DNA of 64,000 nt, taken from Eubacteriales bacterium (GTDB lineage Bacteria > Bacillota > Clostridia > Oscillospirales > RGIG5299). The notes under the pieces were generated by a model. That model was given only the letters and a program-made list of their open reading frames with translations. It had not been told where the DNA came from and ran no database searches. This document shows, in pieces, positions 7,541 to 29,537 of the stretch (within the stretch, counting starts at the first letter, position 1; every line of letters starts with the position of its first letter). The stretch lies in assembly GCA_045542315.1 (NCBI GenBank), contig JAZQKU010000075.1, positions 3,700 to 67,699 of the forward strand. Reading direction: 5' to 3'. The position numbers and the translations under genes were made by a program.

Positions 7541-7633
7541 AAAAATATCTCCTTGCAATATGGGTGTTTTTGTTAAAATTTCTTGCACTTTTATTGAGTT
7601 TATAGTATTATATTATATAGAGATTAAAAAAGA

Positions 7634-13750: not shown

Positions 13751-13942
13751 ATGGCAAAGGAAAAGAGATTTGAAAAGGTTTACGAGGAGAGCGGATTTAC
13801 AATGGGTAAAACTGTTTTGGTAGATACCGAAACGGGAGTAAATTACCTTTACGTTTCCTCGGGCTACGGCGGCGGACTCACTCCGCTTCTTGATGCAGAC
13901 GGCAAGCCGATAATAACGAGGGAGTATAAGCTCAATAAATAA
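13751..13942 (+). CDS. small conserved protein (DUF6440-like)
   Basis: 63 aa with RBS AGGAGG upstream. The sequence FEKVYEESGFTMGKTVLVDTETGVNYLY resembles a small family seen widely in Clostridia, from memory. This is the last host-like gene before the AT-rich island. Confidence 0.65.
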   Translation: MAKEKRFEKVYEESGFTMGKTVLVDTETGVNYLYVSSGYGGGLTPLLDADGKPIITREYKLNK

Positions 13943-13967
13943 AAAGAACAGCGAAGTGAGCGGAAAT

Positions 13968-14135
13968 ATGACTTTTGAAGAAGAAAAACAACTTAAAATG
14001 TTGTTGTTGTTAATGCTGGAAAGAAGTTACCAAACGGAATTCGAAAAAGCAGAAAAATTATTCAAACAAGCCATTTTGAATAAATGGCAGATGGGAATAG
14101 CGAAACATATAATAAAAAAATTAAAATGTTTTTAA
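13968..14135 (+). CDS. possible 55-aa ORF at the left edge of the island
   Basis: ATG at 13968 to TAA at 14133-14135, translating as MTFEEEKQLKMLLLLMLERSYQ.... The stop overlaps an in-frame ATG (14126) of the next ORF in the string ATGTTTTTAA. The RBS is weak. It is below the ORF-track size cutoff. Confidence 0.3.
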   Translation: MTFEEEKQLKMLLLLMLERSYQTEFEKAEKLFKQAILNKWQMGIAKHIIKKLKCF

Positions 14136-14671
14136 GTTCAAAGACGGCGGTGCAATTTACAGTTAATCAGTTTAAGATACTTGATATCGCTGCAACAGAA
14201 ATAAATAATTTATTTAATATGTTTGAGCTGCAAATAACGCCAGATTTGATCCTTAAAGATAAAATTAGGACCATTCACAATATAGTCGCGGAATTAAATG
14301 TTGACACAAAGACGCTAACACCAGAAGAATATATAGAATTAAAAATGACAAAAGAAGAATTCATCAATTTCAGTGATGAATTTGATGGATGTTTTATAGT
14401 AAAAGAGGAACATCCTTCGGATTTTCCACAACGTTATAGAGTACAAGAAACGTCATTACACAAACACGGATACAGCGTGGCGTCAACAAGCAAGCTTTCC
14501 AATTACCGCAGACAACAATTATTGAAGCAGATTATTGAAATGGGTAAAGAAGAAAAAGGTTATGTGGTTTGGCAATTACAACAGTATATAAAAGATAATA
14601 AAAATAAAAAGTGCAACGCTATGGCTGTTGCAAAATGGGAAATGGATTTGGAGTTTGTTTTAAAGTTATGA
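14126..14671 (+). CDS. hypothetical protein A of the island module (C-terminal LHxxGYxV...AVxKWExDL domain)
   Basis: The ORF-track frame is 14084..14671. Neither the start at 14084 nor the one at 14126 has a clear RBS. The stop TGA (14669-14671) overlaps the ATG (14668) of the next ORF. Confidence 0.6.
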   Translation: MFLSSKTAVQFTVNQFKILDIAATEINNLFNMFELQITPDLILKDKIRTIHNIVAELNVDTKTLTPEEYIELKMTKEEFINFSDEFDGCFIVKEEHPSDFPQRYRVQETSLHKHGYSVASTSKLSNYRRQQLLKQIIEMGKEEKGYVVWQLQQYIKDNKNKKCNAMAVAKWEMDLEFVLKL

Positions 14672-15756
14672 ATGATGTCGAATTGATACCAACAAATCTT
14701 GCTTTTATGGGAGCAATGGATGATTTTTATAATTTGTATTGCGAAATTAAGGTAATATATGAAACACATCGAAAACTTTATATTCGAGAAAATGGAAAAA
14801 AGTGTCCTCTTTTAAGCAAAACGTGGGATGAGTTGTGTTTAAAAGATGTCAGAAAAAGAATAGAACCACTATTAAATAAATATATACACTTGTTTACAAA
14901 CGACTATGATAGGGTTTTTGCTCGTTCGTATGCATTTCAAAATTTTTCTTTTATCAATAGGGATAAAACTTTTAAGAATTTTGATGGTGAGTCTCCTTTT
15001 ATATTAAGCTTTATATCTTTTTCTGATTTTCTAATTGAATTTCAAATTATCATCACAATGTTAAATTATAGAGAAAATTTTTCAAAAAATCCAGAACATT
15101 CCGTTCAAAAGTCTTGGTTACAAATTAATGAAAAAATTAGGACTTTGACAAAAGAAAAAAGATCGGAATGCGAAACATTAAGCAATACAATTCCCGCCTC
15201 AAGTGATATTTTGTATATTTTTGATAAACTCTCGAGTATTTCTTGCTATAAAAAAGATCATCCAATTATATCAGCAAGATATGTTGCGGTTGTTGCAAAA
15301 ACTGCAAAGAAAATATCACTTCCAGTGCATTATTGTGATTATTGTAAAAAATACTTTATTGGTGCAAAAACATTGGCGATATTTGAAAAAAATTTTGGAA
15401 AGTTAATAATAGATAAAAAAGATATAAGCGAAATGGAAACGGAATTCGGATGCTTCAATGCGGAATCCAAATTGCATTCATTGGGTTATAATGTTATCAA
15501 AGGTAGATTGTCCGCAGATGAGCGAGAGCAGCTGTTAATATATTTGTTGGAAAATAGATTAATTACTTATGTGGAATTGTGTTCAACAATAGAACAAAAT
15601 ATTAACATATTTAAAAGGTCACATAGCCACAGATTTGCTGTTGAAAAATGGGAAAATGATCTCAAGGCAATAGGAAAATACATTTTAAAGCATCCCGAAA
15701 AGAAGGATTATATAACATTAACTATTCCGTATAAAAAAGATAAAAACAATGAATAA
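14668..15756 (+). CDS. hypothetical protein B of the island module (Cys-pair motif HYCDYCKKYF and the same C-terminal domain as protein A)
   Basis: This is the ORF-track frame 14611..15756. The ATG at 14668 forms an ATGA overlap with the upstream stop. 362 aa, AT-rich codon usage. Confidence 0.65.
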   Translation: MNDVELIPTNLAFMGAMDDFYNLYCEIKVIYETHRKLYIRENGKKCPLLSKTWDELCLKDVRKRIEPLLNKYIHLFTNDYDRVFARSYAFQNFSFINRDKTFKNFDGESPFILSFISFSDFLIEFQIIITMLNYRENFSKNPEHSVQKSWLQINEKIRTLTKEKRSECETLSNTIPASSDILYIFDKLSSISCYKKDHPIISARYVAVVAKTAKKISLPVHYCDYCKKYFIGAKTLAIFEKNFGKLIIDKKDISEMETEFGCFNAESKLHSLGYNVIKGRLSADEREQLLIYLLENRLITYVELCSTIEQNINIFKRSHSHRFAVEKWENDLKAIGKYILKHPEKKDYITLTIPYKKDKNNE

Positions 15757-15760
15757 AAAT

Positions 15761-15789
15761 TTGACAAAGAGGTTCGGGTGTGGTATAAT
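15761..15789 (+). promoter_or_regulatory. near-consensus sigma-A promoter (TTGACA-17 nt-TATAAT with a TGn extended -10)
   Basis: TTGACA at 15761-15766, a 17-nt spacer ending in TGG, and TATAAT at 15784-15789. Confidence 0.7.
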
Positions 15790-15875
15790 CTACCACGCCC
15801 GATTTTCTTACATCGGTCTGCCGGGGCAGCCGAGTTTCGGGCGACAACGTTCGATGAAGAACCGGGTGAGAAAGA

Positions 15876-16022
15876 ATGGAAAACTATTGTGAAGAGTGTG
15901 GCGCAAGTTTGAAAGGTAGCTTTTATACAGATCCCTGGGAAGATGGCGACAATGATTACGGTTACTATACATGCAGACGTTGCGGTCACAAAAATATCGA
16001 CTGGGATAGCAGCGACGACTGA
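15876..16022 (+). CDS. 48-aa zinc-ribbon mini-protein (below the ORF-track cutoff)
   Basis: MENYCEECGASLKGSFYTDPWEDGDNDYGYYTCRRCGHKNIDWDSSDD carries two CxxC pairs. It lies between a consensus promoter and a UUCG-loop terminator. Confidence 0.55.
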   Translation: MENYCEECGASLKGSFYTDPWEDGDNDYGYYTCRRCGHKNIDWDSSDD

Positions 16023-16030
16023 ATACTTTG

Positions 16031-16060
16031 AAACGCACTCTCTTCGGAGGGCGTGTTTCT
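16031..16060 (+). terminator. rho-independent terminator (UUCG tetraloop)
   Basis: aaacgcactctc-ttcg-gagggcgtgttt with one mismatch, followed by a T-rich tail. Confidence 0.65.
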
Positions 16061-16190
16061 TGTCACCGAAAACCACGCGATAGTCGCGTGGTTTAAAGAA
16101 GGTTAACCGATGAAAGAAATCCTCCAAATATGTAATAATAGACTTGACCTGCCAGTCAAAGAATAAAAAACATATTTGGAGGATAAATCT

Positions 16191-16660
16191 ATGAAAAAAG
16201 TGGACATAGACAATAATAGTTTAGCACATACGAGTTGGAATTGCAAGTATCATATAGTGTTTGCGCCAAAATATAGACGAAAAGTTTTTTCGAAGGAAAA
16301 CGAATGGAAATACGAGAAATACTCCGCCAACTTTGCAAATGGAAAGGAGTGGAGATAATTGAAGGAGAAGTGTGTACAGATCACATACATATATTGGTGA
16401 GTATCCCGCCCAAAATGAGCGTTTCGGGGTTTATGGGATATCTCAAAGGGAAAAGCGCATTGCTGATATTTCAGAAATATAGAAATATGAAGTTTGCATA
16501 CCGAAACCGCGAATTTTGGTGTAAGGGATATTACGTAGATACCGTGGGGAAGAATACGAAAGCAATAAAAGAGTATATTGCAGATCAATTGAAGAGAGAT
16601 CAGGAGAGTGATCAATTAGCGATGTTTGACCCACGGGACCCATTTATGGGTGGTAAGTAA
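16191..16660 (+). pseudogene. tnpA: IS200-type Y1 transposase TnpA, interrupted by a -1 frameshift in a T6 run
   Basis: The N-terminal part (...SLAHTSWNCKYHIVFAPKYRRKVF) and the C-terminal part (MEIREILRQLCKWKGVEIIEGEVCTDHIHILVSIPPK...YYVDTVG) are in different frames. One extra T in the run at 16285-16290 would give a continuous KVFFEGKRMEIREIL. Confidence 0.85.
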
Positions 16661-16740
16661 CAATTGCATGGCTGGCAGGCCAATCTAAAGCGCACTTGTG
16701 CGCCGCCAGTAGTATTAGGGCTATGCCCGAAAATGAAATA

Positions 16741-16770
16741 CCCCCCGTTATACGCAATGTCATTAAGTTA
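16741..16770. repeat. left copy of a roughly 30-nt inverted repeat (partner at 29492-29523)
   Basis: The sequence is CCCCCCGTTATACGCAATGTCATTAAGTTA. The reverse complement of the partner is CCCCCCGTATAACGGCAATGTCATTAAGTTAA. Confidence 0.75.
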
Positions 16771-16810
16771 GAGGGTATCTTTGTAAAAGATACCCTCTAA
16801 CTTTCTTTTG
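16767..16810 (+). terminator. strong hairpin with a T-run at the IS200 right end
   Basis: Perfect 16-bp stem gttagagggtatcttt / aaagataccctctaac with loop gta, followed by tttcttttg. Confidence 0.75.
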
Positions 16811-16899
16811 TATTAGAAATGTCTGTTAAGTTAAGAAATTCGCAAAGAAAAAAAGCCACGTATACTCTATTGTAAAGTATCTTTTCAGCGTTTTTCTGT

Positions 16900-18610
16900 C
16901 TGAAGCTCGATTATTTCTTAATTTTAAGCAACATAAAAGAGCAAGAATTACTCCTTGCTTCATTTTTTATAAAAAATAACTATGCTGCTACGCGATAGGC
17001 AAATCCAACAAAATGCTTGGTTCTTAGATTGCGTTTATCTCTTCTTCCGGGACGTATGGGTTCTGTATATTTTTCAATTTCAATAATCAATTCTTTAAAA
17101 TCTGTTTTTAGTTTTTTATAAAAAAGTCTACACAAATGAACAGCCATCGTGTAATCGACCTTATAATTATAAACGGCATTATCTCGTTTGTGAATTTTTG
17201 CATTGCTCACTATTCGACTACAATAATTATACATAATTATTGATGAATATATCTCTTGTTTTACTAAATCCTCTTTTTTGCAATGGAAATTAATTAATCC
17301 TACTACATACTTTACTTCTCGAAAAGACGTCTCTATTCCCCAACGCATATGATAAAGCGCTTTAATCTCTGACATGGAAAATTTACTGCGGGGTAACGAA
17401 GTTATAACGGTTTCATATTCACCGGTATCTAACATAAAGCGAACTACACGAAAACTCATTGCATAGGGAGACCCGAAATCCCAATTTCTCATAACTGTGT
17501 TGGAACTATAGCACTTATTTTTATTGTGGATTTGTATAAATATCCTGTTATGCATTTTATCTTCTTTGGTTTGAGTTGTAGTTAACTCAAAAGAAATGTC
17601 TTTATCAAGTTCTATCATCGGAAGCTTCGAAATATCACGAAAAGCTCCCTTTCCTTGCTTGACTCGCATTAAAAAGTCTACGTTTTCCGTATTAATTAAA
17701 TGAGCAATCAAATTATATCCTTCATAACCGCGATCGGCAATAATTATATTATTCCCTTGAAATGCATTACGCTTTAACATCGTTATCAATGCTTCGTGTT
17801 CGTTAGATTTCGGAACAGGTTGTAGTAATATATCTTTGAAGGTCCTATTTAGTACATCGTATAAGGCATTTAAGTGAGTTTGGTTAAATCCTTTTTCATT
17901 TTTCAGAGTTGTAATAAAGCTTTCTAAATCAGGATTGCGAAAATGATTGATCTTCGACCCATCAACCGCAAAAACTCTATATCCTTTATATTTTTCTCTA
18001 TCGTTACTTAATGAGTTGAATTGCTTTAATATTGTTTCAAAAGCCTGATATTGTATTTTTGAACGTTGCTGCACAAACGCAGATGAGGTGACGTCAATTT
18101 TATTTGTCTTCCCAAAGTCATACAACTCTTTCTTTAGTGAGCCACCTTCCATCGATATAATAAGCTTAATGACCTTTTCTAATGTCAATTTACGGTTCCG
18201 TGTGAAATCGGTGGTGGGATTTTTAACAAAATCCTGTTTGTTTGCAATTACGAATTCAATTGCCTTTTCTAAATTTTGATGAATGTTTTTTACAATAGAC
18301 ATTATTTCCTTTCCGTATGCAGGTGCGGTTTAGAACTATAAAAGGGATACTTTAAATATCCGAAAGTTCTGTTCCGGCAGAACCTTTTTTCTTTTATAGT
18401 GGGGGTTTTAACACAAAAACGCCCTTACATACAAAAAACACTTGAAACATTACTGTGATGTAAACGTGTAAATAAATCACATTGTTTACAAGCAAGTGCT
18501 TTTTTAAAATGTAAGAGCGCAACACCTCAACCATATATCATGGAATTCTTGCCTATTCGATTTTTGTTTTGTACATTATACTCTATTATAGCATTTGATG
18601 TCAAGGAAAA
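16900..18610 (-). mobile_element. IS4-family insertion sequence; boundaries not resolved
   Basis: Contains the transposase CDS and a terminator-like hairpin (agcaag...cttgct) just past its stop. A possible TTGACA-18 nt-TATAAT promoter lies on the minus strand at 18575-18604. I could not identify terminal inverted repeats by eye. Confidence 0.4.
16980..18302 (-). CDS. IS4-family DDE transposase
   Basis: 440 aa with FAVDGS, ADRGYEGYNLIAHL and YHMRWGIETSFREVKY (Y-x2-R-x3-E-x6-K signature of the IS4 family). Confidence 0.85.
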   Translation of the reverse strand: MSIVKNIHQNLEKAIEFVIANKQDFVKNPTTDFTRNRKLTLEKVIKLIISMEGGSLKKELYDFGKTNKIDVTSSAFVQQRSKIQYQAFETILKQFNSLSNDREKYKGYRVFAVDGSKINHFRNPDLESFITTLKNEKGFNQTHLNALYDVLNRTFKDILLQPVPKSNEHEALITMLKRNAFQGNNIIIADRGYEGYNLIAHLINTENVDFLMRVKQGKGAFRDISKLPMIELDKDISFELTTTQTKEDKMHNRIFIQIHNKNKCYSSNTVMRNWDFGSPYAMSFRVVRFMLDTGEYETVITSLPRSKFSMSEIKALYHMRWGIETSFREVKYVVGLINFHCKKEDLVKQEIYSSIIMYNYCSRIVSNAKIHKRDNAVYNYKVDYTMAVHLCRLFYKKLKTDFKELIIEIEKYTEPIRPGRRDKRNLRTKHFVGFAYRVAA

Positions 18611-18673
18611 ATGTTATTATTATAATCGATTGGATTTTAAATTTACGCTATTTTTCATTTCTGTAAAAATATG

Positions 18674-18702
18674 TTGAATTTAGAAATTTAATGTGGTATA
18701 AT
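18674..18702 (+). promoter_or_regulatory. near-consensus sigma-A promoter upstream of the giant surface-protein gene
   Basis: TTGAAT at 18674-18679, a 17-nt spacer ending in TGG, and TATAAT at 18697-18702. Confidence 0.65.
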
Positions 18703-18708
18703 ATATAT

Positions 18709-18921
18709 GCCAAACCAAATGAATAATTGAAAGCAAGAACTATTTTTATCTTTATAGGGATAACTATAGTTTTTTTGCGTTGTATCCAAAACGAATTTGA
18801 TAAAAATGCAAATTCCCATTGGATATAGCGTAGAGTTGTTCTTGCTTTTTCAGTTGGTTTGGCGACTATCGGAGTTTGCATTTTAATGCGGCTGCTTCGG
18901 TAGTCGCATTTTTTATTTTTT
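18709..18921 (+). promoter_or_regulatory. structured leader ending in an intrinsic terminator, immediately before the RBS of the 2810-aa gene
   Basis: There are two perfect long-range complements: 18709-18718 with 18854-18863 (10 bp), and 18730-18740 with 18838-18848 (11 bp). The terminator stem is 18885-18895 / 18900-18910 with a UUCG loop and a T-run to 18921. An alternative pairing joins 18862-18872 with 18897-18907. Confidence 0.55.
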
Positions 18922-18934
18922 GGAGGAAAAATAA

Positions 18935-21900
18935 ATGCAATTTTGGAAAAACCTCAGACGATTAATTTCGTTCTTGCTGTGTATTGTAATGATTTCAACG
19001 ATGCTGCCTATGGGTATTTTTACAGTTAGTGCGGAAACCACAGATGGCGATTATATCTATACAGTATCAAATGGTGAGGCAATTATAATCGGGTACAACT
19101 CCATCAGTGGCAGTGTTGTTATACCCTCAACTTTAGGTGGATATCCTGTAACGGCTATAGGCGAGTATGCTTTTGAAAGTTGTTGGGGCTTAGAAGGTAT
19201 TATAATTCCAGACAGTATTACAATTATAGGCGATTACGCGTTCTCTTATTGCGGTGATCTTGCAAGTGTTATACTAGGTAATAGTGTTATAACTATAGGA
19301 GATTCTGCATTCTCTGATTGTTGGGAACTTAAAAATATAACAATTCCCGACAGCGTTATAACTATAGATGATTATGCATTTGCTTATTGTTCCAACCTTC
19401 AGAGCGTCACCTTGGGCAAGAGTGTTGCAACCATAGGCTCTGGAGCATTCTCTAGTTGCGATGGCCTTGAGAGTATTACAATTCCCGATAGCGTTATAAC
19501 TATAGGCAATTCTGCATTTAGGAATTGTTATAACCTTGAGAGTATTATAATTCCAGATAGCGTTACGACTATAGGCAGTTATGCATTTGCTAGTTGCTCT
19601 AACCTTGAGAACATCACTGTCGATAATAATAACAATTATTATTCTTCATTCGATGGGGTGTTATTTAATAAAGATAAAACAACACTTTTATCTTATCCTA
19701 AAGGTAATAAAGCAACGTCTTATACAATTCCCAATAGTGTTACAACTATAGAAGATGAGGCATTTTCTAATTGCGATAACCTTAATAATATTATAATTCC
19801 CGATAGTGTTACAACTATAGCCGACAGAGCGTTATCTTATTGTGACAATCTTAGGAGTGTTACAATTTTTAATGGCGTTATAACTATAGGCAATTCTGCA
19901 TTTAGGAATTGTTATAACCTTGAGAGTATTATAATTCCAGATAGCGTTACGACTATAGGCAGTTATGCATTTGCTAGTTGCACTAACCTTGACAGTGTAA
20001 CACTGGGAAAGGGTGTTGAAATCATAGGCTCTAGTGCATTCTCCAATTGTGATACCCTTCAGAATATCACTATTGATAATAATAACAATTATTATTCTTC
20101 AATCGATGGCAGTCTGTTTGATAAAGATAAAACAACACTTATATCTTATCTTGCAAGCAATACAGCAACGTCTTATACAATTCCTAATAGTGTTGTAGCT
20201 ATAGGTGATTCTGCATTCTCCGGTTGCGAGAATCTTGAGAGTATTACAATTCCCAATAGTGTTGTAACTATAGGTAGGTATGCATTTGAGAATTGTTCTA
20301 ACCTTGAAAGTGTTACAATTCTCAATAGCGCTATAAACATAGGCCATGGTGCATTTGATGGTTGTTCTAACCTTAAAAGCATAAGCAAACCGGCTGATAC
20401 TGATGAGTTTGCAGGAGGATGCGGCACAGAAACAGATCCGTATTTAATTGTAACAGAAGAACATCTTGACAATGTTCGTGATTATCTTTATGCACATTTT
20501 AAAATGATTGCGGATATTGAGTTTGCCGATAGTATAAATTGGGAACCGATTGGCGATGATTACAAACCCTTTACAGGCACCTTTGACGGAAATGGATGTA
20601 AGATTAAAAACCTTTATATTTATACTGAATATACCGGTGGAAGCGGTGTCGGACTTTTTGGTTATATCAAAGAAGGCACTGTAAAAAATCTCGGATTAGA
20701 AAACGGAAATATAACTGCGACCGAGGAAGAATGGTCCTCTTTACCCGGAGGAGGAATGGGAGTTGGTAGGGATCCGACAGTATACGTAGGCAGCATTGCA
20801 GGAATTGTAGAGAAAGGCACAATAACTAACTGTTACAATACAGGTAATGTATCTGGTTTAAATCCCGCAGATCCTTATACAGGCGGTATTGTGGGCGATT
20901 TATATGGAGGAACAATATCTGATTGCTATAATACCGGTAACATTACAGGAGAGGGTTGGGCTACTGGTGGTATTGCGGGTACTGCTTCAGGCACAATAAC
21001 CAATTGTTATAATGTAGGTAATGTTTCTGCAACTTCAACTTACGAATTTTACGTAGGTGGTATTATTGGCTCTGCTTCAGGCACAGTTTCTAATTGCTAT
21101 TATTTAGATAATATTTCTGTTGGTGTAGGGAACGGAACCGACACTTGCACAAAATGCTCTTGCGAAGAAATGCAACATCAATCAACCTTCGTTGGTTTTG
21201 ATTTTAACGAGGTTTGGGTTATTAATAGCAATATTAAGTATAAATTTCCTCAATTGCAAAACAATCCTTACATTGTTGAACTGTTATCAATTGAAATAAC
21301 CGTAAAACCAACCAAACTCACATATATCGAAGGTGAACCCATTGACCCGACAGGAATGGTTGTTACGGCTTACTATAACAATAACACTTCGAAAATTGTC
21401 ACGGATTACGCCGTTAGCGGTTCCACCGCTAACCCCGGAACTTCAACAATTACCATAACCTACGGCGGTAAAACCGCAACATTTAACGTTACGGTTGAAA
21501 CAAAGCAACTCACATCTATTGCGGTAACTACAAAACCCACCAAATTCACCTATCTTGAAGGCGAATCCTTTGACAAAACCGGTATGGTTGTTACCGCATA
21601 TTATAGCAATGGCACTTCCGAAATCATAACTGACTACGCCGTAAGCGGTTACGATTCAAATCCAGGAACTTATACAATTACCATAACCCATGGTGGAAAG
21701 ACTGCAACATTCAACGTTACAGTTGATGCAAAGCGACTCACATCTATTGCAGTTACAACAAAACCCAATAAGCTCACTTATTTTGAAGGCGAAAATTTTG
21801 ATGCCACAGGGTTGGTTGTCACGGCGTATTATAACAATAACTCCTCTGAAGTTATAAATAATTACACCATAAGTGGCTACGATTCTACGATTGGGAAAAA

Positions 21901-24900
21901 AGACATTGCAGTTACTTATAACGGTAGAGTCTACTATTTTTCCGTCGAAGTTATACCTATAGAAATTAAATTCATAAAGGTTACTACAGAACCAAGTAAA
22001 CTCACCTATGTCGTAGGCGAAGATTTTGATGCCACAGGTATGGTCGTTACGGCTTATTATAATAATGGTGCCTCTGAAGTTATAACCGATTACACCATAA
22101 GTAGTGATCCGTTTTCTGTTGTTGGTACTTATATGATCACTATAACTTATCGTGATAAAACTGATATTTTGATTGCTACGGTTATTCCTGTAGAACTCAT
22201 TTCAATAAAGGTTACCACAAAACCTAATCAACTCACCTATCACGAAGGAGAAGCCTTTAAAACTACAGGTATGGTTGTTACGGCTTATTATAACAATGGC
22301 ACCTCTGAAGTTATAACCGATTATACTGTCAGCGGTTATAATTCTGATTCTGGTACTAACAGCATTACTGTAGCTTACTGTGGTAAGACTGACAGTTTTG
22401 AACTCGAGGTAATTCCGCTTACTTCAATAGAAGTAGCTACGAAACCTACAAAACTTATATATCTCGAAGGCGACAACTTAAGCACAAGCGGTATGGTCGT
22501 TGTTGCGTATTACAGTGATGGCTACTCTATAAAAATAAGTGGGGCTAACATTCCTTATGGTTTTTACACTGTCTCCGGCTATACCTCCACTCCGGGCACA
22601 AAGACGATCACTGTAGCTTACTGTGGTAAGACTGACAGTTTTGAGGTTGAAGTAAGTCCAATTACTTCAATTACCGTTGGCAGACCAAATAAACTCACTT
22701 ATCTCGAAGGTGAAGATTTTGATGCTACGGGTATGGAGATTTATGTCTATTGCGCCAATCTTCAACTACCGGGTGATACTGTTCGAAATTATTATATAAG
22801 CACAACTGATTACACCATTAATGGCTATACTTCTACACCCGGTATTAAAACTATTACTATTACTTGCTGGGGTAAAACCGACAGTTTTGAGGTTGAAGTC
22901 CTTCCGCTTACTTCAATAGAAGTAACTACGAAACCTACTAAGCTCACCTATCTCGAAGGCGAAGATTTTGATGCTACGGGTATGGTTGTCACGGCTTATT
23001 ACAATAATTATATTCCTGTAGTTATAACTGATTATATAGTAGATGGGTACGATTCTGAATCAGGCACTAAAAACATTACTGTAACTTTCAATGGTAAAAC
23101 CGATAGTTTTAAAGTCGATGTAAGTCCGGAGGGACTCACCTCAATAGCTGTCGCTAAAAAACCAAGCAAGCGCACATATCTTGAAGGCGAAAGTTTTGAC
23201 GCTACAGATATGGTTGTTGTTGCGTATTACAGTGATGGCTACTTTGAACGAATAACAGACTACACCGTTAGTGGTTATACCTCTAAACCTGGTACTAAAA
23301 CAATTACTGTCAAATTTAACGGTAAAACTGATTCTTTTTCCGTTGTTGTCAATGATAAGGTTCCATCAACTAAAGTCTACTATTCAGATATCTTCTACGG
23401 ATATGATGCCTCGTATTTATCCAATGATGTTGGGTTAAAAATGCATTATTCGGATACCCATATTATTGAAAGAATATATAACGAGTATGCTGCAAGTAAC
23501 CAGAGTTTTTGGACTCAGTTTGAAACTGCGTTGGATGCAAGCCTCCCAGTGTTTAAATTGGATTTTAGACAGTATGCAATGTTGATGTCAGACACATTCG
23601 GAGGCACCGACTATATTTATCAGAAATCTTTAGATAGTGCCAATTTGGTATTTGCCCAAAATATATTCAAAAGCTACAGGGGGGCTGTTTTATCTGAAGA
23701 TGCAGATACATTTGGCGCTGCTAAAAAACTTTATAAGCGCGTAGAGTCACTGCTTAAAGTTTATGATACTTTCGAAAAAAACTACGACGTATATGAGATG
23801 ACAGACTACGAAGTCTTTTATGAAATGTTTGAGTATGTTAAGGGCCAAGGAATTTTTGTTTTTGTTGGTAGTGCAAACATAACCAAAATTGAAGAAGTAG
23901 TTCTAAAAGACGTTAAAAAATATATGGATATGTTTGATAAAGCAGCAACCGCGGCAGAAGTTGCTCAAGCAATTCTTATAGCCGCTATGATGGAAGATGT
24001 TAGAATGGAAATTGTTGATGAAGTTCTTGCAGCTGCTCCCACAGATTCAGTCATATACGATGGAATGTCGCGCTTAAAGAAACAACTCTCTGGAGGCTTT
24101 GTTACCTATTTTGCCGAAAACTATTTGAAAGAGGTCTTTTTGGATACTCTTGTTAAAGGAATTACTAAGCCCATAGTAGATACAATTAGAGAAGAACACG
24201 GTACATATGCTCTTTGTGTTGATGCGCTGTCAGTGGCATCGTGGGTATTCTTTGATCGTATATTTGATATTCCAGATCTTGGAGAAATGACAACCCAAAA
24301 GGTTTTGGGAGATTATGTTAACGGTTTTCACGAGATTCTTAAATCAAAATGTAATGCATTTAATGAGCAATTTACCGTAGATGATATATCAAAATTTGAA
24401 GCACTATTCGATGGTTATATTGCAGCTACAAATGCAGCACTTGAAGAGTCTAAAAAATTCCAATTGCCGAGCAACGAAGAAGATCTTCTTATTGCTACTG
24501 TTTTGTGGCAAAATTATGATTATGATGATTATATAAACGATATTATCAAAGAAATTGAAAATACTCCTGTTTCCGAAAGAAAAATTAAGTTTTTTGAGGA
24601 ATGGGACTATAACTTAGGAGATAAGTTCAGGGTTGCATCAGATACTATTGAAAAAAATTCAATATATATGTTTAACGGCGATTTTTTGGCAAATATGTAT
24701 ATTAGTTTTATTGTATATGATGATATATTTACAATATTTGCCGATGAAACAACACAAATAAGTATAAAGGGGGATTTAAATGTCTATAATCCATATAACG
24801 GTTATATCTATACTGATGATGGTCACTATAATCTTTTTATAACGATTCCTGAAGGAAAAACCTTGCGAATTGGTGGTAATTTTACAGTTGGTGGCGCAAA

Positions 24901-27367
24901 AGCACTAACATATATACGCAATTATGGAACGTTAATTTGTGAAAAAAATGTAAGTTTTGAAGAAAATTTGGGGCTATATAGACCTTATGAAGATTCAAAA
25001 ATAATTGTAAAGGGTAATTTGAGCATAGGTGACGGTATTTATGTTTATTACGGCACAATAGAATTTGCGGGAACCGAGCAACAAGAAATATATTTGCCTA
25101 AAGCACACAATGTCGAAGTTACAAATCCCAAGGGTATAAAGTATTTGACAGATTTAAGGTTGTATGGAGAATATAACCTTAATGGAAATCCATTACATTC
25201 AAATGGATTTTATACCATTTTGGAGCGGGCGCAATATTCCAAATTAGATGGTTCGGATTTTCAAGAAGTTATAATCAACAGCTATTATGATTTTATACTG
25301 GATTTTAATATTAAAGGCAATGTATATATTGCGAATAACATCACTGTAAATATTCCCGAGGAGGCTACTGTAGAAATTGACGGAAATATTACAATTGGAG
25401 ATGACTACGCCAGCACAGCACGTTTAATTAACGAAGGAACATTAATTTGTACAGGAAATATACATGACGACGGGTATGGAAGATTTTCTCAATCCGAAGA
25501 CAGTAGGTTGATTTTCAAGGGCAAAGAGTTGTCAATTGCGATAGGTGAGGGTACTATAGAATTTGCAGGAACCGAACAACAGCATATATACGGTTTTACA
25601 TATTTTGATAATATTGAAGTTACAAATCCAAATGGCATAAAGTACCACGGTCAGGTACGTGTGTCCGGGAAATACAACCTCAATGGTAACCCGTTAGATG
25701 TTAATGTCTACAATACTTTTTTACACAAAGGAGCTGATTTGGATGATTCGGAATTTCAAAGAGTTTATTTAGACGATGGGTATATAGTAAAAAATAGTAT
25801 AAATGCCGATATATATGTAACGTGTCCAGATAATGGTGCATTTATTGAATTCACAAACAGTGACAACCATAATATTATTATTAATGGAAATTTGTGTGTA
25901 CATAACGATTATGATTATTCAAGTAATCGTTACCCTATCAACATATATATTTCCGCAGAGACCACAGTAACGATCAATGGAAGTATTATGATTGATGGTG
26001 AATTTGGAAACACTTATGTAAACAATTATGGAACATTGATTTGTGAGCAAAATATCGCTTTCAAGAATAACGTCAAATATATACCATCCGCAGAATCTAA
26101 ATTGATATTAAAAGGGGATTTGAATTTTGGCTCAAATAACTATCAACACATCACCAGTGGCATAATAGAATTTGCAGGAACAGAGAAACAAGAGGCGAAC
26201 TTGGATTCAGCGAATATTGTTGAAATAAGTAATGCATCCAATGAAGGCGTAGTTTTTACCTCGAAAATTTCTGTTTATGAACTTTTCGACCACAAGGGCA
26301 ACAATTTCACCCTCTATAACAACGGCTCAGGTTCAACTTTTGTGGATTACGACGGCGACGGTATGCTTGATAATGTAGATCCGTATCCCACAATTGATAA
26401 TCACAAGCACGATTACGCCAACCAAGGCGCTTGCACCATTTGCGGAGCATATAGAGCAAAGTTTTCAGGTGCATCACTTACGCTTGAGGATAATATTGCA
26501 GTTAACTTTAAGGTTGATCCCAAACAATTCGAAGGAACCGAATACAGCAATCCCTACGTTGTATTTACCTTCAACGGAAATCAATTCACAGTAACAGATT
26601 ACACTATTGATTCAAATGGACGATATGCGTTTACATTCAGCGATATTGCACCGCGTATGATGAATGATTCCGTCGTTGCCACATTGTATGTCATATACAA
26701 CGGAGAACCGGTTGAATGTCAAACAAGAAGCTACAGCGTTAAAGAGTATTGCTATAATATGCTCTCTCGCTGCAACGAAGGTGGCGTATATGCCAACAAC
26801 GAAAAGTTTAAGGCATTGCTCGTGGACTTGCTTAACTACGGAGAAGCAGCTCAAATTTACGGCAATTATAACACCGATACACTTGTAACGGCAGATCTGA
26901 CCGAAACGCAAAAAGGTTGGGCAACAGATGCAAAACCGAATTTATCCACAGTCCAGAGTTTGACGTATAAAACAATCGAAAATCCCTCTGTAACTTGGAA
27001 AGCAGGCGGCTTGTTGCTCGAAGACGCGGTAACAATGAGGTTTAAATTTGCTACAGATTCCGTGGATGGCTTAACTGTAAAATTCTATACCGATAGTAAC
27101 CCCACCGGCTGGACGGTTGATGATAGCGAATTCGTTGAAACGACGGGTGGATATTATGTTTACTTTGACGGTTTAAAAGCTCGTCAAATGCGAGAAACTG
27201 TTTATATAACTGTTTATCGTGGCGACACTGCAGTTAGCAATACGGTCAGCTATAGCATTGAGTCTTATGCATATGCGAAACAAAACGATTCAAATGAGAA
27301 TTTGACGGCGTTATTGGAAGCAATGATGAAATACGGAGACTCGGCAGATAACTATATAAATGGATAA
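18935..27367 (+). CDS. giant secreted multi-repeat surface protein (BspA-type LRR, GLUG-like region, nine Ig-like repeats, helical region, three large repeats, duplicated C-terminal domain)
   Basis: 2810-aa ORF with RBS GGAGG and an N-terminal signal peptide. The LRR consensus is IPDSVTTIGxxAFxxCxNLxSITI. GGIVG/GGIAG/GGIIG motifs are present. There are nine copies of LTSIxVTTKPTKLTYLEGExFDxTGMVVTAYYxNG...GTKTITVxYxGKT. No LPxTG motif, SLH domain or C-terminal TM segment is visible. Confidence 0.9.
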   Translation: MQFWKNLRRLISFLLCIVMISTMLPMGIFTVSAETTDGDYIYTVSNGEAIIIGYNSISGSVVIPSTLGGYPVTAIGEYAFESCWGLEGIIIPDSITIIGDYAFSYCGDLASVILGNSVITIGDSAFSDCWELKNITIPDSVITIDDYAFAYCSNLQSVTLGKSVATIGSGAFSSCDGLESITIPDSVITIGNSAFRNCYNLESIIIPDSVTTIGSYAFASCSNLENITVDNNNNYYSSFDGVLFNKDKTTLLSYPKGNKATSYTIPNSVTTIEDEAFSNCDNLNNIIIPDSVTTIADRALSYCDNLRSVTIFNGVITIGNSAFRNCYNLESIIIPDSVTTIGSYAFASCTNLDSVTLGKGVEIIGSSAFSNCDTLQNITIDNNNNYYSSIDGSLFDKDKTTLISYLASNTATSYTIPNSVVAIGDSAFSGCENLESITIPNSVVTIGRYAFENCSNLESVTILNSAINIGHGAFDGCSNLKSISKPADTDEFAGGCGTETDPYLIVTEEHLDNVRDYLYAHFKMIADIEFADSINWEPIGDDYKPFTGTFDGNGCKIKNLYIYTEYTGGSGVGLFGYIKEGTVKNLGLENGNITATEEEWSSLPGGGMGVGRDPTVYVGSIAGIVEKGTITNCYNTGNVSGLNPADPYTGGIVGDLYGGTISDCYNTGNITGEGWATGGIAGTASGTITNCYNVGNVSATSTYEFYVGGIIGSASGTVSNCYYLDNISVGVGNGTDTCTKCSCEEMQHQSTFVGFDFNEVWVINSNIKYKFPQLQNNPYIVELLSIEITVKPTKLTYIEGEPIDPTGMVVTAYYNNNTSKIVTDYAVSGSTANPGTSTITITYGGKTATFNVTVETKQLTSIAVTTKPTKFTYLEGESFDKTGMVVTAYYSNGTSEIITDYAVSGYDSNPGTYTITITHGGKTATFNVTVDAKRLTSIAVTTKPNKLTYFEGENFDATGLVVTAYYNNNSSEVINNYTISGYDSTIGKKDIAVTYNGRVYYFSVEVIPIEIKFIKVTTEPSKLTYVVGEDFDATGMVVTAYYNNGASEVITDYTISSDPFSVVGTYMITITYRDKTDILIATVIPVELISIKVTTKPNQLTYHEGEAFKTTGMVVTAYYNNGTSEVITDYTVSGYNSDSGTNSITVAYCGKTDSFELEVIPLTSIEVATKPTKLIYLEGDNLSTSGMVVVAYYSDGYSIKISGANIPYGFYTVSGYTSTPGTKTITVAYCGKTDSFEVEVSPITSITVGRPNKLTYLEGEDFDATGMEIYVYCANLQLPGDTVRNYYISTTDYTINGYTSTPGIKTITITCWGKTDSFEVEVLPLTSIEVTTKPTKLTYLEGEDFDATGMVVTAYYNNYIPVVITDYIVDGYDSESGTKNITVTFNGKTDSFKVDVSPEGLTSIAVAKKPSKRTYLEGESFDATDMVVVAYYSDGYFERITDYTVSGYTSKPGTKTITVKFNGKTDSFSVVVNDKVPSTKVYYSDIFYGYDASYLSNDVGLKMHYSDTHIIERIYNEYAASNQSFWTQFETALDASLPVFKLDFRQYAMLMSDTFGGTDYIYQKSLDSANLVFAQNIFKSYRGAVLSEDADTFGAAKKLYKRVESLLKVYDTFEKNYDVYEMTDYEVFYEMFEYVKGQGIFVFVGSANITKIEEVVLKDVKKYMDMFDKAATAAEVAQAILIAAMMEDVRMEIVDEVLAAAPTDSVIYDGMSRLKKQLSGGFVTYFAENYLKEVFLDTLVKGITKPIVDTIREEHGTYALCVDALSVASWVFFDRIFDIPDLGEMTTQKVLGDYVNGFHEILKSKCNAFNEQFTVDDISKFEALFDGYIAATNAALEESKKFQLPSNEEDLLIATVLWQNYDYDDYINDIIKEIENTPVSERKIKFFEEWDYNLGDKFRVASDTIEKNSIYMFNGDFLANMYISFIVYDDIFTIFADETTQISIKGDLNVYNPYNGYIYTDDGHYNLFITIPEGKTLRIGGNFTVGGAKALTYIRNYGTLICEKNVSFEENLGLYRPYEDSKIIVKGNLSIGDGIYVYYGTIEFAGTEQQEIYLPKAHNVEVTNPKGIKYLTDLRLYGEYNLNGNPLHSNGFYTILERAQYSKLDGSDFQEVIINSYYDFILDFNIKGNVYIANNITVNIPEEATVEIDGNITIGDDYASTARLINEGTLICTGNIHDDGYGRFSQSEDSRLIFKGKELSIAIGEGTIEFAGTEQQHIYGFTYFDNIEVTNPNGIKYHGQVRVSGKYNLNGNPLDVNVYNTFLHKGADLDDSEFQRVYLDDGYIVKNSINADIYVTCPDNGAFIEFTNSDNHNIIINGNLCVHNDYDYSSNRYPINIYISAETTVTINGSIMIDGEFGNTYVNNYGTLICEQNIAFKNNVKYIPSAESKLILKGDLNFGSNNYQHITSGIIEFAGTEKQEANLDSANIVEISNASNEGVVFTSKISVYELFDHKGNNFTLYNNGSGSTFVDYDGDGMLDNVDPYPTIDNHKHDYANQGACTICGAYRAKFSGASLTLEDNIAVNFKVDPKQFEGTEYSNPYVVFTFNGNQFTVTDYTIDSNGRYAFTFSDIAPRMMNDSVVATLYVIYNGEPVECQTRSYSVKEYCYNMLSRCNEGGVYANNEKFKALLVDLLNYGEAAQIYGNYNTDTLVTADLTETQKGWATDAKPNLSTVQSLTYKTIENPSVTWKAGGLLLEDAVTMRFKFATDSVDGLTVKFYTDSNPTGWTVDDSEFVETTGGYYVYFDGLKARQMRETVYITVYRGDTAVSNTVSYSIESYAYAKQNDSNENLTALLEAMMKYGDSADNYING
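19491..19981 (+). repeat. two perfect 107-bp direct copies inside the LRR-coding region (19491-19597 and 19875-19981)
   Basis: gcgttataactataggcaattctgcatttaggaattgttataaccttgagagtattataattccagatagcgttacgactataggcagttatgcatttgctagttgc occurs identically twice, offset by 384 bp (128 codons). Confidence 0.9.
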
Positions 27368-27386
27368 TTAGGAAAGGAGAAAGATT

Positions 27387-27515
27387 ATGAAAAACTACAA
27401 AGCACCGGAAGTGGAAATTAATATTTTCGATATAGAAGATATTATTACAGTCAGCTCAACCGGTTCGGGAACAAGCTCAAACCCGGACGAGTTACCTGAT
27501 GATGAGTGGGAATAA
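27387..27515 (+). CDS. 42-aa acidic peptide gene, unannotated (below the ORF-track cutoff)
   Basis: The RBS AGGAAAGGAGA lies 20 nt after the giant-gene stop. The peptide is MKNYKAPEVEINIFDIEDIITVSSTGSGTSSNPDELPDDEWE. A strong terminator follows. Confidence 0.6.
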   Translation: MKNYKAPEVEINIFDIEDIITVSSTGSGTSSNPDELPDDEWE

Positions 27516-27555
27516 GGTTTTAGCAAAAAGAAAAAATAAGCTTTAAGCAATAAAT

Positions 27556-27595
27556 AAACTCCCGAAATTCATAATGAATCTCGGGAGTTTTTCTT
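27556..27595. terminator. bidirectional terminator between convergent genes
   Basis: aaactcccga ... tcgggagttt is a 10-bp stem, followed by a T-run and preceded by an A-rich stretch. Confidence 0.8.
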
Positions 27596-27624
27596 GCGTC
27601 ATTATTAAAATTTATATTTTTCTA

Positions 27625-28803
27625 TCAATCTACTTTTTCATATATATACGGTGTAGAAAAATATCTGCGGCGGTGGCCTTCTAATACTTCTTCTAACGAG
27701 TCTGTGTCAATTTCAATAGATAAATCCTCATGAGCTATGTTGTTTGTGCCATCAGGAAAAACAACAAGATTATTATAGTTTTTTTCTTTATACGTCACAT
27801 CTCCTGTATATTCCAAAGAAAGATAAACTTTATCATCAAAAGCACCGTTTTTGTTATAACGATCTGCAGAATAGATAGTTATTAATTTGACTGAAAGATC
27901 GGGATTTTCGGTTGGAGTATAAAAATACGTTCCGACATAAGAAAGAGCTTTGAATTTGGCATCCTCGTTTTCTTCTAACATTGAAAGCTCATTATTTTCA
28001 AAATTAGCCTTAATATCGTCTATTGTAGTTTTTGAAACGTCTTTTGCTGTCATAAATTGGGGCAAACCCGAAACAGTTATTACTTTAACGGTTTCATTGG
28101 GAACAGCGTTAAGCCTTATGGAATCGTCTAAATCATACTCTATCATAACGGTTACTTTATCGCCGTTTTTAAGCTTGTAACTGTTATCTGCTGAAAATCT
28201 GCAAAGCTGTGTAAATGGATTCTCGGAATTATTTATTATTTCTAAACGGGCATAACCACTAACGCCCGTTATTTCAAACTCAACGTCCTTGAAAACGTCT
28301 ATAACCTCGGCTTCGGGTAAATTTTCAACCGTGAACGTTTTACTGCCGCATTTGATCTTAGATGCGGCATCTCCTCTTGCCAAAATTGTAACGGTAACGG
28401 TATCGCCGTTGCTTAAGTTCTCTGTCTTATCGCAGCTGTACGATATTGTGTCGGAATACTCCTCGTATTTCATTTCCCATTTAAAATATTCCTCGAAGTT
28501 CATCTCATTGGGAGCTTCGCCGATAATTTTAGAAATAAGCGCTCTGTCATCAAACGAGACGTAAGCTGTGCCGTAACCGTCGTTACCGTCAAAGGTGACT
28601 TCAACGTAATCAAAGGTGTTTATCTTTGAGGAAACTGCCATTACAATTAAAATCGGTACCAATATAGCCACCGCGATAACGCCGATAATGGTCGCCTTCA
28701 TCGGAGTGGTCCACTTGCTCTCGCCCTGAGCCTTTTTTGCAGCCTCGCAGCTGCATTTTTCAAATAATGGTATCTTGTTACCGCAGTGTTCACAGTATTT
28801 CAT
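27625..28803 (-). CDS. membrane-anchored protein: N-terminal zinc ribbon, one TM helix, repeated extracellular beta-rich domains
   Basis: 392 aa. The N-terminus is MKYCEHCGN...CSCEAAKK, followed by a hydrophobic helix (ATIIGVIAVAILVPILIVMAV). Two similar modules each contain NGDxVTV. Confidence 0.7.
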   Translation of the reverse strand: MKYCEHCGNKIPLFEKCSCEAAKKAQGESKWTTPMKATIIGVIAVAILVPILIVMAVSSKINTFDYVEVTFDGNDGYGTAYVSFDDRALISKIIGEAPNEMNFEEYFKWEMKYEEYSDTISYSCDKTENLSNGDTVTVTILARGDAASKIKCGSKTFTVENLPEAEVIDVFKDVEFEITGVSGYARLEIINNSENPFTQLCRFSADNSYKLKNGDKVTVMIEYDLDDSIRLNAVPNETVKVITVSGLPQFMTAKDVSKTTIDDIKANFENNELSMLEENEDAKFKALSYVGTYFYTPTENPDLSVKLITIYSADRYNKNGAFDDKVYLSLEYTGDVTYKEKNYNNLVVFPDGTNNIAHEDLSIEIDTDSLEEVLEGHRRRYFSTPYIYEKVD

Positions 28804-28814
28804 TGTTATGCCTC

Positions 28815-29018
28815 CTAATTCTTTTTCTTGTATTCGTCAAACTTGAATATAAACGGCTCATAGCCGGGTAGACCGATAATAGCCTCACCTATTTGCAGGC
28901 GGGATATATCCCAATCCTCTACAACGTTGCCTTCACGCTGATTAGAATGCGTATATTCTTTTCCTAAAACATCGCCGCAATGCTTGCAGCGCACCTTACA
29001 AACACGTAAAAATTTCAT
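28815..29018 (-). CDS. 67-aa hypothetical protein (Cys-rich N-terminus)
   Basis: RBS AAGGAG. The gene sits 11 nt upstream of the 392-aa gene, whose own RBS GGAGG lies in that spacer. The N-terminus is MKFLRVCKVRCKHCGDV. Confidence 0.55.
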   Translation of the reverse strand: MKFLRVCKVRCKHCGDVLGKEYTHSNQREGNVVEDWDISRLQIGEAIIGLPGYEPFIFKFDEYKKKN

Positions 29019-29029
29019 TTTTTCTCCTT

Positions 29030-29334
29030 AAAAAACAAAAAAGACGCACTTACCCTCTTTCAAAAATGAAAGAAAGTAAAGTACGTCTTAAATTACATAC
29101 TTTCACAGAAAAGCTGGATCGACTTTTCCGTATACTATCTTTTTGGTTGCTGTTACCGTAGCCTTAATAATGGCCCCGTCCCCTTACGGCGATGAATCTG
29201 CTCTAAGACAGTTTGACCTTGGCGATAACTGATCCGCACAACCGGCGGCTTCCACTTATTACTGAATATATGCCATCTTCCCGGCGCTGGCTCAAGCGCT
29301 ACTTTTCTCGGTTGAGATGACTTCAGTTAATGTT
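29030..29334 (-). promoter_or_regulatory. roughly 300-nt GC-rich structured leader ending in an intrinsic terminator (candidate riboswitch or attenuator, class not recognised)
   Basis: The minus-strand terminator is aagacguacuuuacuuucuuuca-uuuu-ugaaagaggguaagugcgucuu plus UUUUUGUUUUUU (29030-29089), directly before the RBS. The leader is noticeably more GC-rich than the surrounding island and has many local helices. Confidence 0.5.
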
Positions 29335-29340
29335 GCTAAT

Positions 29341-29369
29341 ATTATATTATACCGCACACGTTTTGTCAA
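29341..29369 (-). promoter_or_regulatory. consensus sigma-A promoter (TTGACA-17 nt-TATAAT) on the minus strand
   Basis: tgtcaa at 29364-29369 and attata at 29341-29346 (plus-strand reading), giving a 17-nt spacer. Confidence 0.65.
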
Positions 29370-29491
29370 GTACATTATACCGCATTTGGCTTGTTAATAG
29401 CTACATTATACTTCAAAGGAGTATTGTAAAAAATACCCCCTATAGTTTCTTCTGCTATAGGGGGATTGTTAATATTATAAATTGTTTTTCC

Positions 29492-29523
29492 TTAACTTAA
29501 TGACATTGCCGTTATACGGGGGG
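29492..29523. repeat. right copy of the roughly 30-nt inverted repeat (partner at 16741-16770)
   Basis: The sequence is TTAACTTAATGACATTGCCGTTATACGGGGGG. It lies at the AT-rich/GC-normal transition, 15 nt from the stop of the beta-helix gene. Confidence 0.75.
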
Positions 29524-29537
29524 ATTTTTATTGTTTT

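Follow-up and report, generated by a model that had tools for sequence, protein, structure and literature searches.

An AT-rich, strain-variable block in a ruminant-gut Clostridia genome, read as a probable stack of nested insertions

How does a block of more than 15 kb come to lie between two core genes when it has no integrase, no transfer RNA (tRNA) gene and no flanking repeats? The question is raised by positions 13946-29527 of a 64,000-nucleotide stretch of DNA from a Clostridia (Eubacteriales) species of the ruminant gut, uncultured and with a genome of ~1.5 Mb; this stretch, which we call the window, is G000:C75:3700-67699 of a metagenome-assembled genome (MAG) of 1.48 Mb (97 contigs, 86.5% complete, GC content 0.457). 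An earlier note, made from the letters of the window, had described the block as a single accessory island whose mode of acquisition was unclear. We consider it highly probable that the island is instead a stack of three insertions in the terminator region between two convergent core genes: a 2.1-kb cassette (layer A), an IS200 insertion sequence (IS; layer B) and, nested in the latter, an IS4-family transposon that makes up 82% of the island's length (layer C). The mode of acquisition would then be unclear for 13946-16066 (2.1 kb) only and be explained by transposition for the rest, and an island that lacks integrase, tRNA and flanking repeats becomes explicable by nested transposition.

The block and its empty site

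The block is a real, strain-variable insertion of deviant composition. GC content per 1-kb window is 0.44-0.50 outside and 0.29-0.41 between ~13.9 and 29.5 kb, a step from ~0.47 down to ~0.36. Taken whole, 13946-29527 has a GC of 0.359 against a mean of 0.459 for the other 12-kb windows of the genome (standard deviation 0.020, minimum 0.404), and it is the longest low-GC run of the entire assembly and the most deviant of its long stretches. The tetranucleotide distance of the island from the remaining genome is 0.425, with a maximum of 0.276 elsewhere, and GC at third codon positions (GC3) is 0.24-0.38 in island genes versus 0.48-0.63 in flanking genes. The profile of GC and k-mers that the earlier note had proposed as a check therefore bears out its AT-rich block with abrupt steps, the edges of which lie at 13946 and 29527-29532. 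A distant donor need not be invoked for the low GC, which would be in keeping with a general AT-richness of the lineage's mobile gene pool. The insert and its two flanks are as follows.

13751-13942, + strand: DUF6440 gene, 63 aa, left core flank (Pfam PF20037, E 1.7e-25; GC3 0.48)
13946-29527 (right edge ambiguous to 29532), unstranded: whole variable insert, 15,582 bp, delimited by empty-site BLAST and junction sequences
29538-31694, - strand: beta-helix lipoprotein gene, 718 aa, right core flank (native composition, GC3 0.63)

The DUF6440 and beta-helix genes are convergent core genes, the latter with orthologs of 84-91% identity in congeneric genomes, and an empty-site variant in which the two lie side by side had been predicted. 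Such a variant exists. The exact 63-aa DUF6440 protein is encoded on 10 other public contigs, and the empty-site allele is found on seven contigs of the same species (L001-L006 and L008), with flanks 96-98% identical to those of the window. In L001 (9.4 kb), the left flank of the window is followed by DUF6440, the beta-helix gene on the opposite strand and spo0A; by BLAST, this contig matches the window at 98.1% identity through 13945 and at 96.5% from 29528 on, with 34-36 nt in between. These 34-36 nt fold into a terminator hairpin bordered by A and T runs, and this terminator sequence was not found anywhere in the window.

Logan contigs from four runs were also compared with the locus; the runs that hold it are animal-gut metagenomes, mostly bovine. 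In run X2, a 9366-bp contig jumps from 13945 to 29535 with 42 other letters between, which is the empty form. Run X1 has a 151-bp contig that bridges 13915-14065, i.e., the left junction, another contig that ends at 13945, and island-internal pieces at a depth similar to that of the flanks. The left island junction is also present, identical letter for letter, in L007, which comes from a separate assembly. Because empty-site contigs and X2 stand beside the left junction in L007 and X1, we conclude that the insert is real, that the species is polymorphic for it and that it is the minority allele.

Of the marks of a classical island, the deviant composition and the variation between strains are present. 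ARAGORN found no tRNA in the window, Pfam and NCBIfam searches found no integrase among the island's open reading frames (ORFs), and neither a repeat search nor the comparison of junctions found a direct repeat at the outer edges 13946/29527. The absence of integrase, tRNA and flanking repeats that the earlier note had reported thus holds at the outer edges; what it had not seen are the inverted repeats of the IS4-family element and a 10-bp duplication inside the block.

A transposon inside an insertion sequence

The two inner layers are made up of the following features, in which IRR and IRL denote the transposase-proximal and transposase-distal inverted repeats.

16067-16754, + strand: main part of the IS200 (left-end hairpin 16070-16095, tnpA, left half of the right-end hairpin)
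16176-16358 and 16304-16660 (16176-16660 overall), + strand: IS200 tnpA in two frames, with Pfam Y1_Tnp PF01797 and NCBIfam NF033573 on both pieces
16745-16754, unstranded: left copy of the target duplication, CCGTTATACG, 10 bp, perfect match
16755-29508, unstranded: IS4-family cargo transposon, 12,754 bp, with cognate inverted repeats and a 10-bp target duplication
16755-16772, + strand: IRR; a perfect 18-bp hairpin, 16765-16803, comes next, and a homologous hairpin stands by IRR in L175-L183
16980-18302, - strand: IS4-family DDE transposase, 440 aa, intact (DDE_Tnp_1 PF01609, E 2e-28; NF033592, 171 bits vs a cut-off of 115)
18604-18575, - strand: transposase promoter, a perfect match found by promoter scan upstream of the transposase
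29491-29508, - strand: IRL, with a hairpin at 29436-29464 just inside
29509-29518, unstranded: right copy of the target duplication, CCGTTATACG, 10 bp, perfect match
29519-29532, + strand: right end of the IS200, its last 14 nt GGGGGATTTTTATT, which is the right edge of the island; nine homologs end with the same motif

The nesting is read from the right end of the IS200. In nine right ends taken from other genomes, a hairpin is followed by GGGGGAT(A/T)TTTATT, after which the sequences diverge. When 16755-29518 is deleted in silico, such that 16754 is joined to 29519, the product is the IS200 right end of L199, letter for letter. From the nine homologous ends and this exact match it follows that the IS200 ends at 29532; the right edge of the island stays ambiguous over 29527-29532 because TTATT is common to the IS200 end and the empty-site sequence. 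Run contigs that match the window up to 16751-16754 go on with a G-run and ATTT and then diverge, and loose ends in X1, X6 and X7 agree. The region ~16067-16754 reaches a depth of 700-2000 in ruminant-gut metagenome runs, and homologs of this IS200 occur in 48 of the 201 genomes of the order. As a separate observation, the last ~115-130 nt of the IS200 occur alone in many genomes at 83-95% identity.

The insertion that splits this end has the marks of a transposon. Both of its ends begin CAATGTCATTAAGTTA, its target site is the loop of the IS200 right-end hairpin, and the 10-bp copies on either side match perfectly. The repeat search had returned a 35-nt inverted repeat with arms at 16736-16770 and 29493-29527, which we rejected as the transposon end; of these 35 nt, the outer 19 come from the split target hairpin and the duplication, and the transposon begins with the inner 16-18 nt. 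The transposase carries the Y-2-R-3-E-6-K (YREK) motif at Y317-K331 and has a single copy in the MAG. Among its 3951 homologs in a collection of 5.8 billion proteins, none exceeds 68% identity. As the transposon lies within an IS200, and this IS200 in turn supplies the right edge of the island, the IS4 transposase would be the vehicle and not a passenger. The transposase, its promoter and the two ends are all undamaged, so that the 12.75-kb unit may have kept its mobility. Between the transposase promoter and the leader of the large gene described below lies an AT-rich near-perfect palindrome of ~76 nt (18431-18506), the Rfam matches of which are at chance level.

The IS200, ~0.7 kb in length, resembles the IS200/IS605 family in its Y1 (HUH) transposase, its size of ~700 bp, its subterminal hairpins at both ends and its lack of inverted repeats and of a target duplication. 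It differs in two defects, a frameshift in tnpA and the interruption of the right-end hairpin by the IS4 transposon, and these leave the copy inert. The frameshift, of -1, lies near 16285; one N inserted after 16285 restores a single open frame of 160 aa, and a contig of run X6 has an extra G at this site. Two IS transposases, one of them a frameshifted IS200 type and the other of IS4 type, had been named in the earlier note, and Pfam and NCBIfam confirm both.

The left flank of the IS200 is a terminator hairpin with a T-run in four of the five homologs examined and in the window copy, which suggests that the IS200 lineage prefers the 3' side of intrinsic terminators. The copies of the lineage in L198, L199, L200, L203 and the window (16031-16066) follow a terminator hairpin, a T-run and a motif of the TTGTAAA/TTGTCAA type. 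We also tried, and rejected, layer A as cargo of the IS200: the left hairpin of the IS200, with which the abundant repeat begins, is at 16070-16095, and a hairpin of this kind is missing near 13946.

The proposed history would then run in three steps. Layer A, with its own promoter and terminator, would have replaced the 34-36-bp intergenic terminator, by a route that we can only infer, either illegitimate recombination or an exchange of alleles in which the flanks recombined homologously. The 0.7-kb IS200 would next have inserted just 3' of the layer A terminator, the usual location of its relatives, and its right end would have become the edge of the island. Last, the 12.75-kb IS4-family transposon would have entered the loop of the IS200 right hairpin by cut-and-paste DDE transposition, duplicating 10 bp; its cargo, between the distal repeat and the transposase, would have been a BspA-like giant gene and a dead fragment of a conjugative element. 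The mechanism proposed for layers B and C is well supported. The mechanism is not new, and the event is of a familiar kind.

Relatives of the transposon and rival histories

A scan of contigs with one genome per species places the transposon in a group with recognizable habits. A 17-mer shared by the ends occurs in over 120 public contigs of Firmicutes or Bacteroidota origin, and many of these carry it twice, in inverted orientation. Where the two ends of a pair are 1.44-1.70 kb apart, homologs of the window transposase (435-441 aa) are encoded between them, and pairs 70-350 bp apart look like miniature inverted-repeat transposable elements; homologous IS copies with these 16-18-nt ends occur in L048, L081, L091, L095 and L183. 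A second scan of such contigs, aimed at close relatives of the transposase, gave no match. Perfect 8-10-bp duplications spanning a hairpin loop accompany 14 of 22 end pairs, and ends abut CC-N(2-7)-GG in 46 of 104 cases (44%) vs 1.2% of control positions. The group normally lands in hairpins that have a short GC stem and lie between A and T runs.

The closest relatives of the transposon are 63-65% identical to it and have the same layout. One of them is a cargo transposon in its own right.

L183:725-11542 (ENA ERZ27297778 k141_432056): cargo transposon, 10,818 bp, with a 10-bp duplication, CCCTTGTGGG, within a terminator hairpin

The transposase of L183 lies at one end of the element, and the ~9 kb of cargo between it and the distal repeat encode a HAD protein, two metallophosphoesterases, a restriction-modification pair (Methylase_S and N6_Mtase/Eco57I) and a tyrosine integrase. 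A sister element, L179, is 79% identical over a shared 4 kb that includes the cargo side, and it occupies a different site. The comparison of L183 with L179 supports movement of cargo together with the transposase; for the window copy, such movement is what we infer.

Among published systems, the IS4-family survey of De Palmenaer et al. (2008, PMC2266710) characterizes every subgroup by its end signature, the length of its duplications and its size: the IS4 subgroup has ends -AATR--------WTW and duplications of 10-13 bp, and IS4Sa has ends CA------T and duplications of 8-10 bp, with sizes of 1.15-1.75 kb. The first 16 nt of the window ends fit both signatures, and the element may belong to either the IS4 or the IS4Sa subgroup. 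The likeness extends to a single-ORF DDE transposase with YREK and to duplications of 8-10 bp in the group (10 bp, about one helical turn, in the window); the relatives measure 1.44-1.70 kb, whereas the window copy measures 12.75 kb with 11 kb of passenger DNA. Among named elements, the closest that was found is IS1675 from Lactococcus, at 36% amino acid identity.

According to the same survey, IS231 was at that time the sole known case of passenger DNA lying between left repeat and transposase gene; it has ends CAT-------AA--TAA, duplications of 10-12 bp and a published size of 1.45-5.4 kb (PMC2266710). The window ends, CAATGTCATTAAGTTAAG, fit this signature in AA at positions 11-12 and TAA at 15-17, and have A, not T, at position 3; the duplication of 10 bp is within the published range. 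IS231 and MIC231 of the Bacillus cereus group share with the window group the place of the passenger DNA, transposase-less derivatives and a short GC-palindrome as target; the window element differs in ends that start CAA and not CAT, in its 12.75 kb and in its gut Clostridia host. In a plasmid search, no Bacillus match stood out. IS231A is said, after work by Hallet et al. in 1994, to prefer GGG-N5-CCC targets. A third comparison is ISRm22, an IS4-family element that inserts in the repetitive extragenic palindromic (REP) sequences of Sinorhizobium meliloti (PMC1525189). It likewise enters an extragenic hairpin at the axis of symmetry and leaves a short duplication, whereas the targets of the window group are diverse terminator-like hairpins, in this case the end hairpin of another IS, and not one REP family.

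The window transposon, together with one relative, adds a well-documented case to the IS4-family elements that would move more than 10 kb of cargo, and it bears on strain-level variation of surface proteins in gut communities and on the annotation of such blocks in MAGs. A wider proposal, which we find conceivable but rather doubtful, is that the window transposon and its 10.8-kb relative stand for a clade, not yet described, of gut-Firmicutes IS4 unit transposons that routinely carry 9-11 kb of cargo and home to terminator-hairpin loops, IS end hairpins included. The cargo types in question would be giant adhesin genes, restriction-modification systems and pieces of conjugative elements, placed between the distal repeat and the transposase. 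If the proposal were true, such a clade would act as a safe-harbour shuttle of surface-protein and defence genes between strains.

Several points weigh against the stack of three insertions. Only one copy of the window transposon is known, its joint movement with the cargo is read from the duplication and the relatives, and the cargo could have entered an ordinary IS after this had landed. The right junction, 29508-29535, is supported solely by the MAG contig and spanned by no listed independent contig. Synteny at the site is not conserved in the genus, so the polarity of insertion and deletion cannot be rooted via other species: in G001 and G003, the DUF6440 block does not adjoin the beta-helix gene, and in G003, the neighbour of this gene is dnaJ, with the DUF6440 block on the opposite side at a distance of 13 kb. 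Layer A has no repeats, recombinase or recognizable ends that would explain its arrival, and two metagenome scans, one for its terminator and one for the left junction, gave no matches; neither a cassette-only nor a cassette-plus-IS200 allele was recovered.

The first of these points leads to the rival that survives best, in which an ordinary IS4-family IS of ~1.6 kb landed first, the 11 kb of cargo entered later, and the 12.75-kb unit never transposed as a whole. With a single known copy, a typical size of 1.4-1.7 kb in the group, and a cargo that is a mosaic including a deleted conjugative-element fragment, this history has something to recommend it. We nonetheless regard it as unlikely: in the two closest relatives, which occupy different sites, ~9 kb of cargo lies in the same position, which means that cargo-bearing forms of this clade move. 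Moreover, no remnant of a proximal repeat exists upstream of the transposase gene (a second proximal repeat was looked for near 18.3-18.9 kb and not found), and neither 18.3-18.9 kb nor 29.4 kb shows a duplication or repeat of the kind that a secondary insertion would leave.

The missing outgroup root, together with the separated genes of G001 and G003, would also allow the island arrangement to be ancestral for the species and the empty site to be a derived deletion or replacement. This we hold to be very unlikely. The empty allele contains a well-formed bidirectional terminator of 34-36 bp that is absent from the window and so cannot stem from a simple deletion, analogous terminators follow the beta-helix gene in other species, the empty form is the majority by seven contigs to one, and layers B and C are demonstrably insertions. 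A classical genomic island that arrived in one step, by site-specific integration or conjugation, and took up its IS elements as later passengers is highly improbable; it would account for the uniformly low GC across the block and for a fragment related to a congeneric integrase-bearing conjugative element, but integrase, tRNA and flanking direct repeat are all missing, the conjugative fragment is only 1.8 kb and sits inside the IS4 transposon, sequential nesting is evident from the 10-bp duplication inside the block and from the exact IS200 end that reappears when the transposon is removed, and the three layers have very different distributions. That foreign AT-rich contigs were joined in assembly or binning is scarcely credible, even with a MAG as fragmented as this one and with IS200-like sequence extremely abundant in these metagenomes, since the left junction is reproduced in L007 and X1, the IS200 end continues exactly across 12.75 kb with a perfect duplication, unlike a chimeric join, and the island-internal pieces of X1 have flank-like depth.

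Cargo, cassette and flanking genes

The stack of three insertions, to which we now return, places the cargo of the transposon between the transposase and IRL, where the following features lie.

18674-18934, + strand: structured 5' leader of the giant gene, adjoining its start at 18935
18935-27367, + strand: giant secreted surface-protein gene, 2810 aa (Pfam LRR_5 E 1.7e-135, Big_3 E 1.1e-81, GLUG)
27625-29384, - strand: decayed conjugative-element fragment, with homologous pieces in an element of the congeneric genome G002
27625-28803, - strand: membrane protein, 392 aa, with a homolog in the G002 element
28815-29018, - strand: fusion ORF, 67 aa, DUF7695 start plus coupling-protein end
29019-29384, - strand: structured leader, 366 nt, with a perfect promoter at 29369-29341 (fold z = -3.3; no Rfam match)

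The giant surface-protein gene that the earlier note had pointed out is present. Its 2810-aa product has a signal peptide, BspA-type LRR_5 arrays, GLUG, nine Big_3 domains and internal repeats, in which it resembles the BspA-like leucine-rich-repeat surface proteins with Big_3, and an adhesin-type role is predicted. It differs from them in its C-terminal part of ~1300 aa, for which there is no family assignment; of 150 other genomes of the order, 12 have homologs of this region, all distant and patchy, and the genus has none. Within the leader, 18793-18930 is 76-79% identical to G000:C46:12255-12389 and to G003:C48:2693-2828 (sister species), and the leader looks like a shared leader/signal-peptide module of surface-protein genes in these communities. 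The bin 18840-19473 has a depth of 446 in run X2. A putative acidic ORF of 42 aa (27387-27515) begins 20 nt past the stop of the giant gene and is followed by a 16-bp bidirectional terminator hairpin (27556-27590).

The element in G002 with which the second piece of cargo can be compared sits directly after the core gene rsgA. It encodes HTH_17, YopX, a stretch 79% identical to window 29021-29384, HIRAN, DUF7695, a tyrosine integrase, a TrwB/TraG coupling protein and the homolog of the 392-aa protein. The 67-aa ORF of the window consists of the first 33 codons of DUF7695 fused to the last 38 codons of the coupling protein, the latter at 95% identity, and from this fusion we conclude that ~6.6 kb, including the integrase, were deleted relative to G002. 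The statement that the block holds no integrase is thus correct for its present state, with the addition that the conjugative fragment once had one, lost by internal deletion. The fragment no longer qualifies as an integrative conjugative or mobilizable element, as only the last 38 codons of the coupling protein are left and the integrase region is gone. The 366-nt leader is probably the regulatory region of the conjugative element's operon. Its counterpart in the G002 element, L043:5518-5876 (79%), precedes the HIRAN-domain gene, and in the window a terminator-like hairpin within the leader abuts the ribosome-binding site of the 67-aa ORF.

Layer A, the oldest insertion in the proposed order, is a small cassette of its own.

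13946-16066, + strand: layer A cassette, 2.1 kb; its left junction is also in L007 and run X1
13956-14135, + strand: ORF, 59 aa (ORF list)
14084-14671, + strand: ORF, 195 aa (ORF list)
14611-15756, + strand: ORF, 381 aa (ORF list)
15761-15789, + strand: perfect promoter (promoter scan)
15876-16022, + strand: zinc-ribbon ORF, 48 aa, followed by its own terminator hairpin ending at ~16058

The ORFs of 59, 195 and 381 aa overlap, and the 195-aa and 381-aa proteins have a C-terminal module of ~70 aa in common. The 381-aa protein has 26 homologs, all from metagenomes and in unrelated contexts, usually with a small zinc-ribbon gene after them. Searches of the layer A proteins against Pfam, NCBIfam and PADLOC gave no family match. 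An AlphaFold2 model of the 381-aa protein is confident (predicted local distance difference test 82, predicted template modelling score 0.67), and a comparison of this model with the PDB and the ESM Atlas gave no significant fold match. A defence or homing cassette was considered for layer A and set aside, as these family and fold searches had all come back without a match. The perfect promoter is TG-extended and has its -10 box in the loop of a 12-bp GC-rich hairpin with a T-run after it (15774-15802), and a GC-rich leader comes next, before the 48-aa zinc-ribbon ORF. This promoter/hairpin leader, 15761-15875, could be an attenuator; it has no Rfam match.

Several results concern the island as a whole. 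The earlier note had reported several near-consensus promoters in it; three sigma-70-type sites are perfect 12/12 matches, and the total of promoter-like sites equals the shuffle expectation. Rfam at a relaxed threshold returned no known RNA family for the island, and exact-protein look-ups with three island proteins returned no matches.

Beyond the island, spo0A at 32030-32845 places the host in the spore-forming Firmicutes, and the nearest public relatives of the host are MAGs labelled Eubacteriales or Clostridia from yak and sheep gut. Within the genus, synteny breaks at the terminator region that follows the beta-helix gene, and each species has a hairpin terminator of its own there (L045 = G003:C29, L046 = G001:C13). 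The 718-aa beta-helix lipoprotein itself belongs to a genus-specific multigene family, of which G002 has six tandem paralogs of 45-51% identity (G002:C8:131905-149847) and the MAG of the window at least three further copies. A bacterial class A RNase P RNA lies on the minus strand at 7633-7980 of the window, with a score of 275.7 bits.

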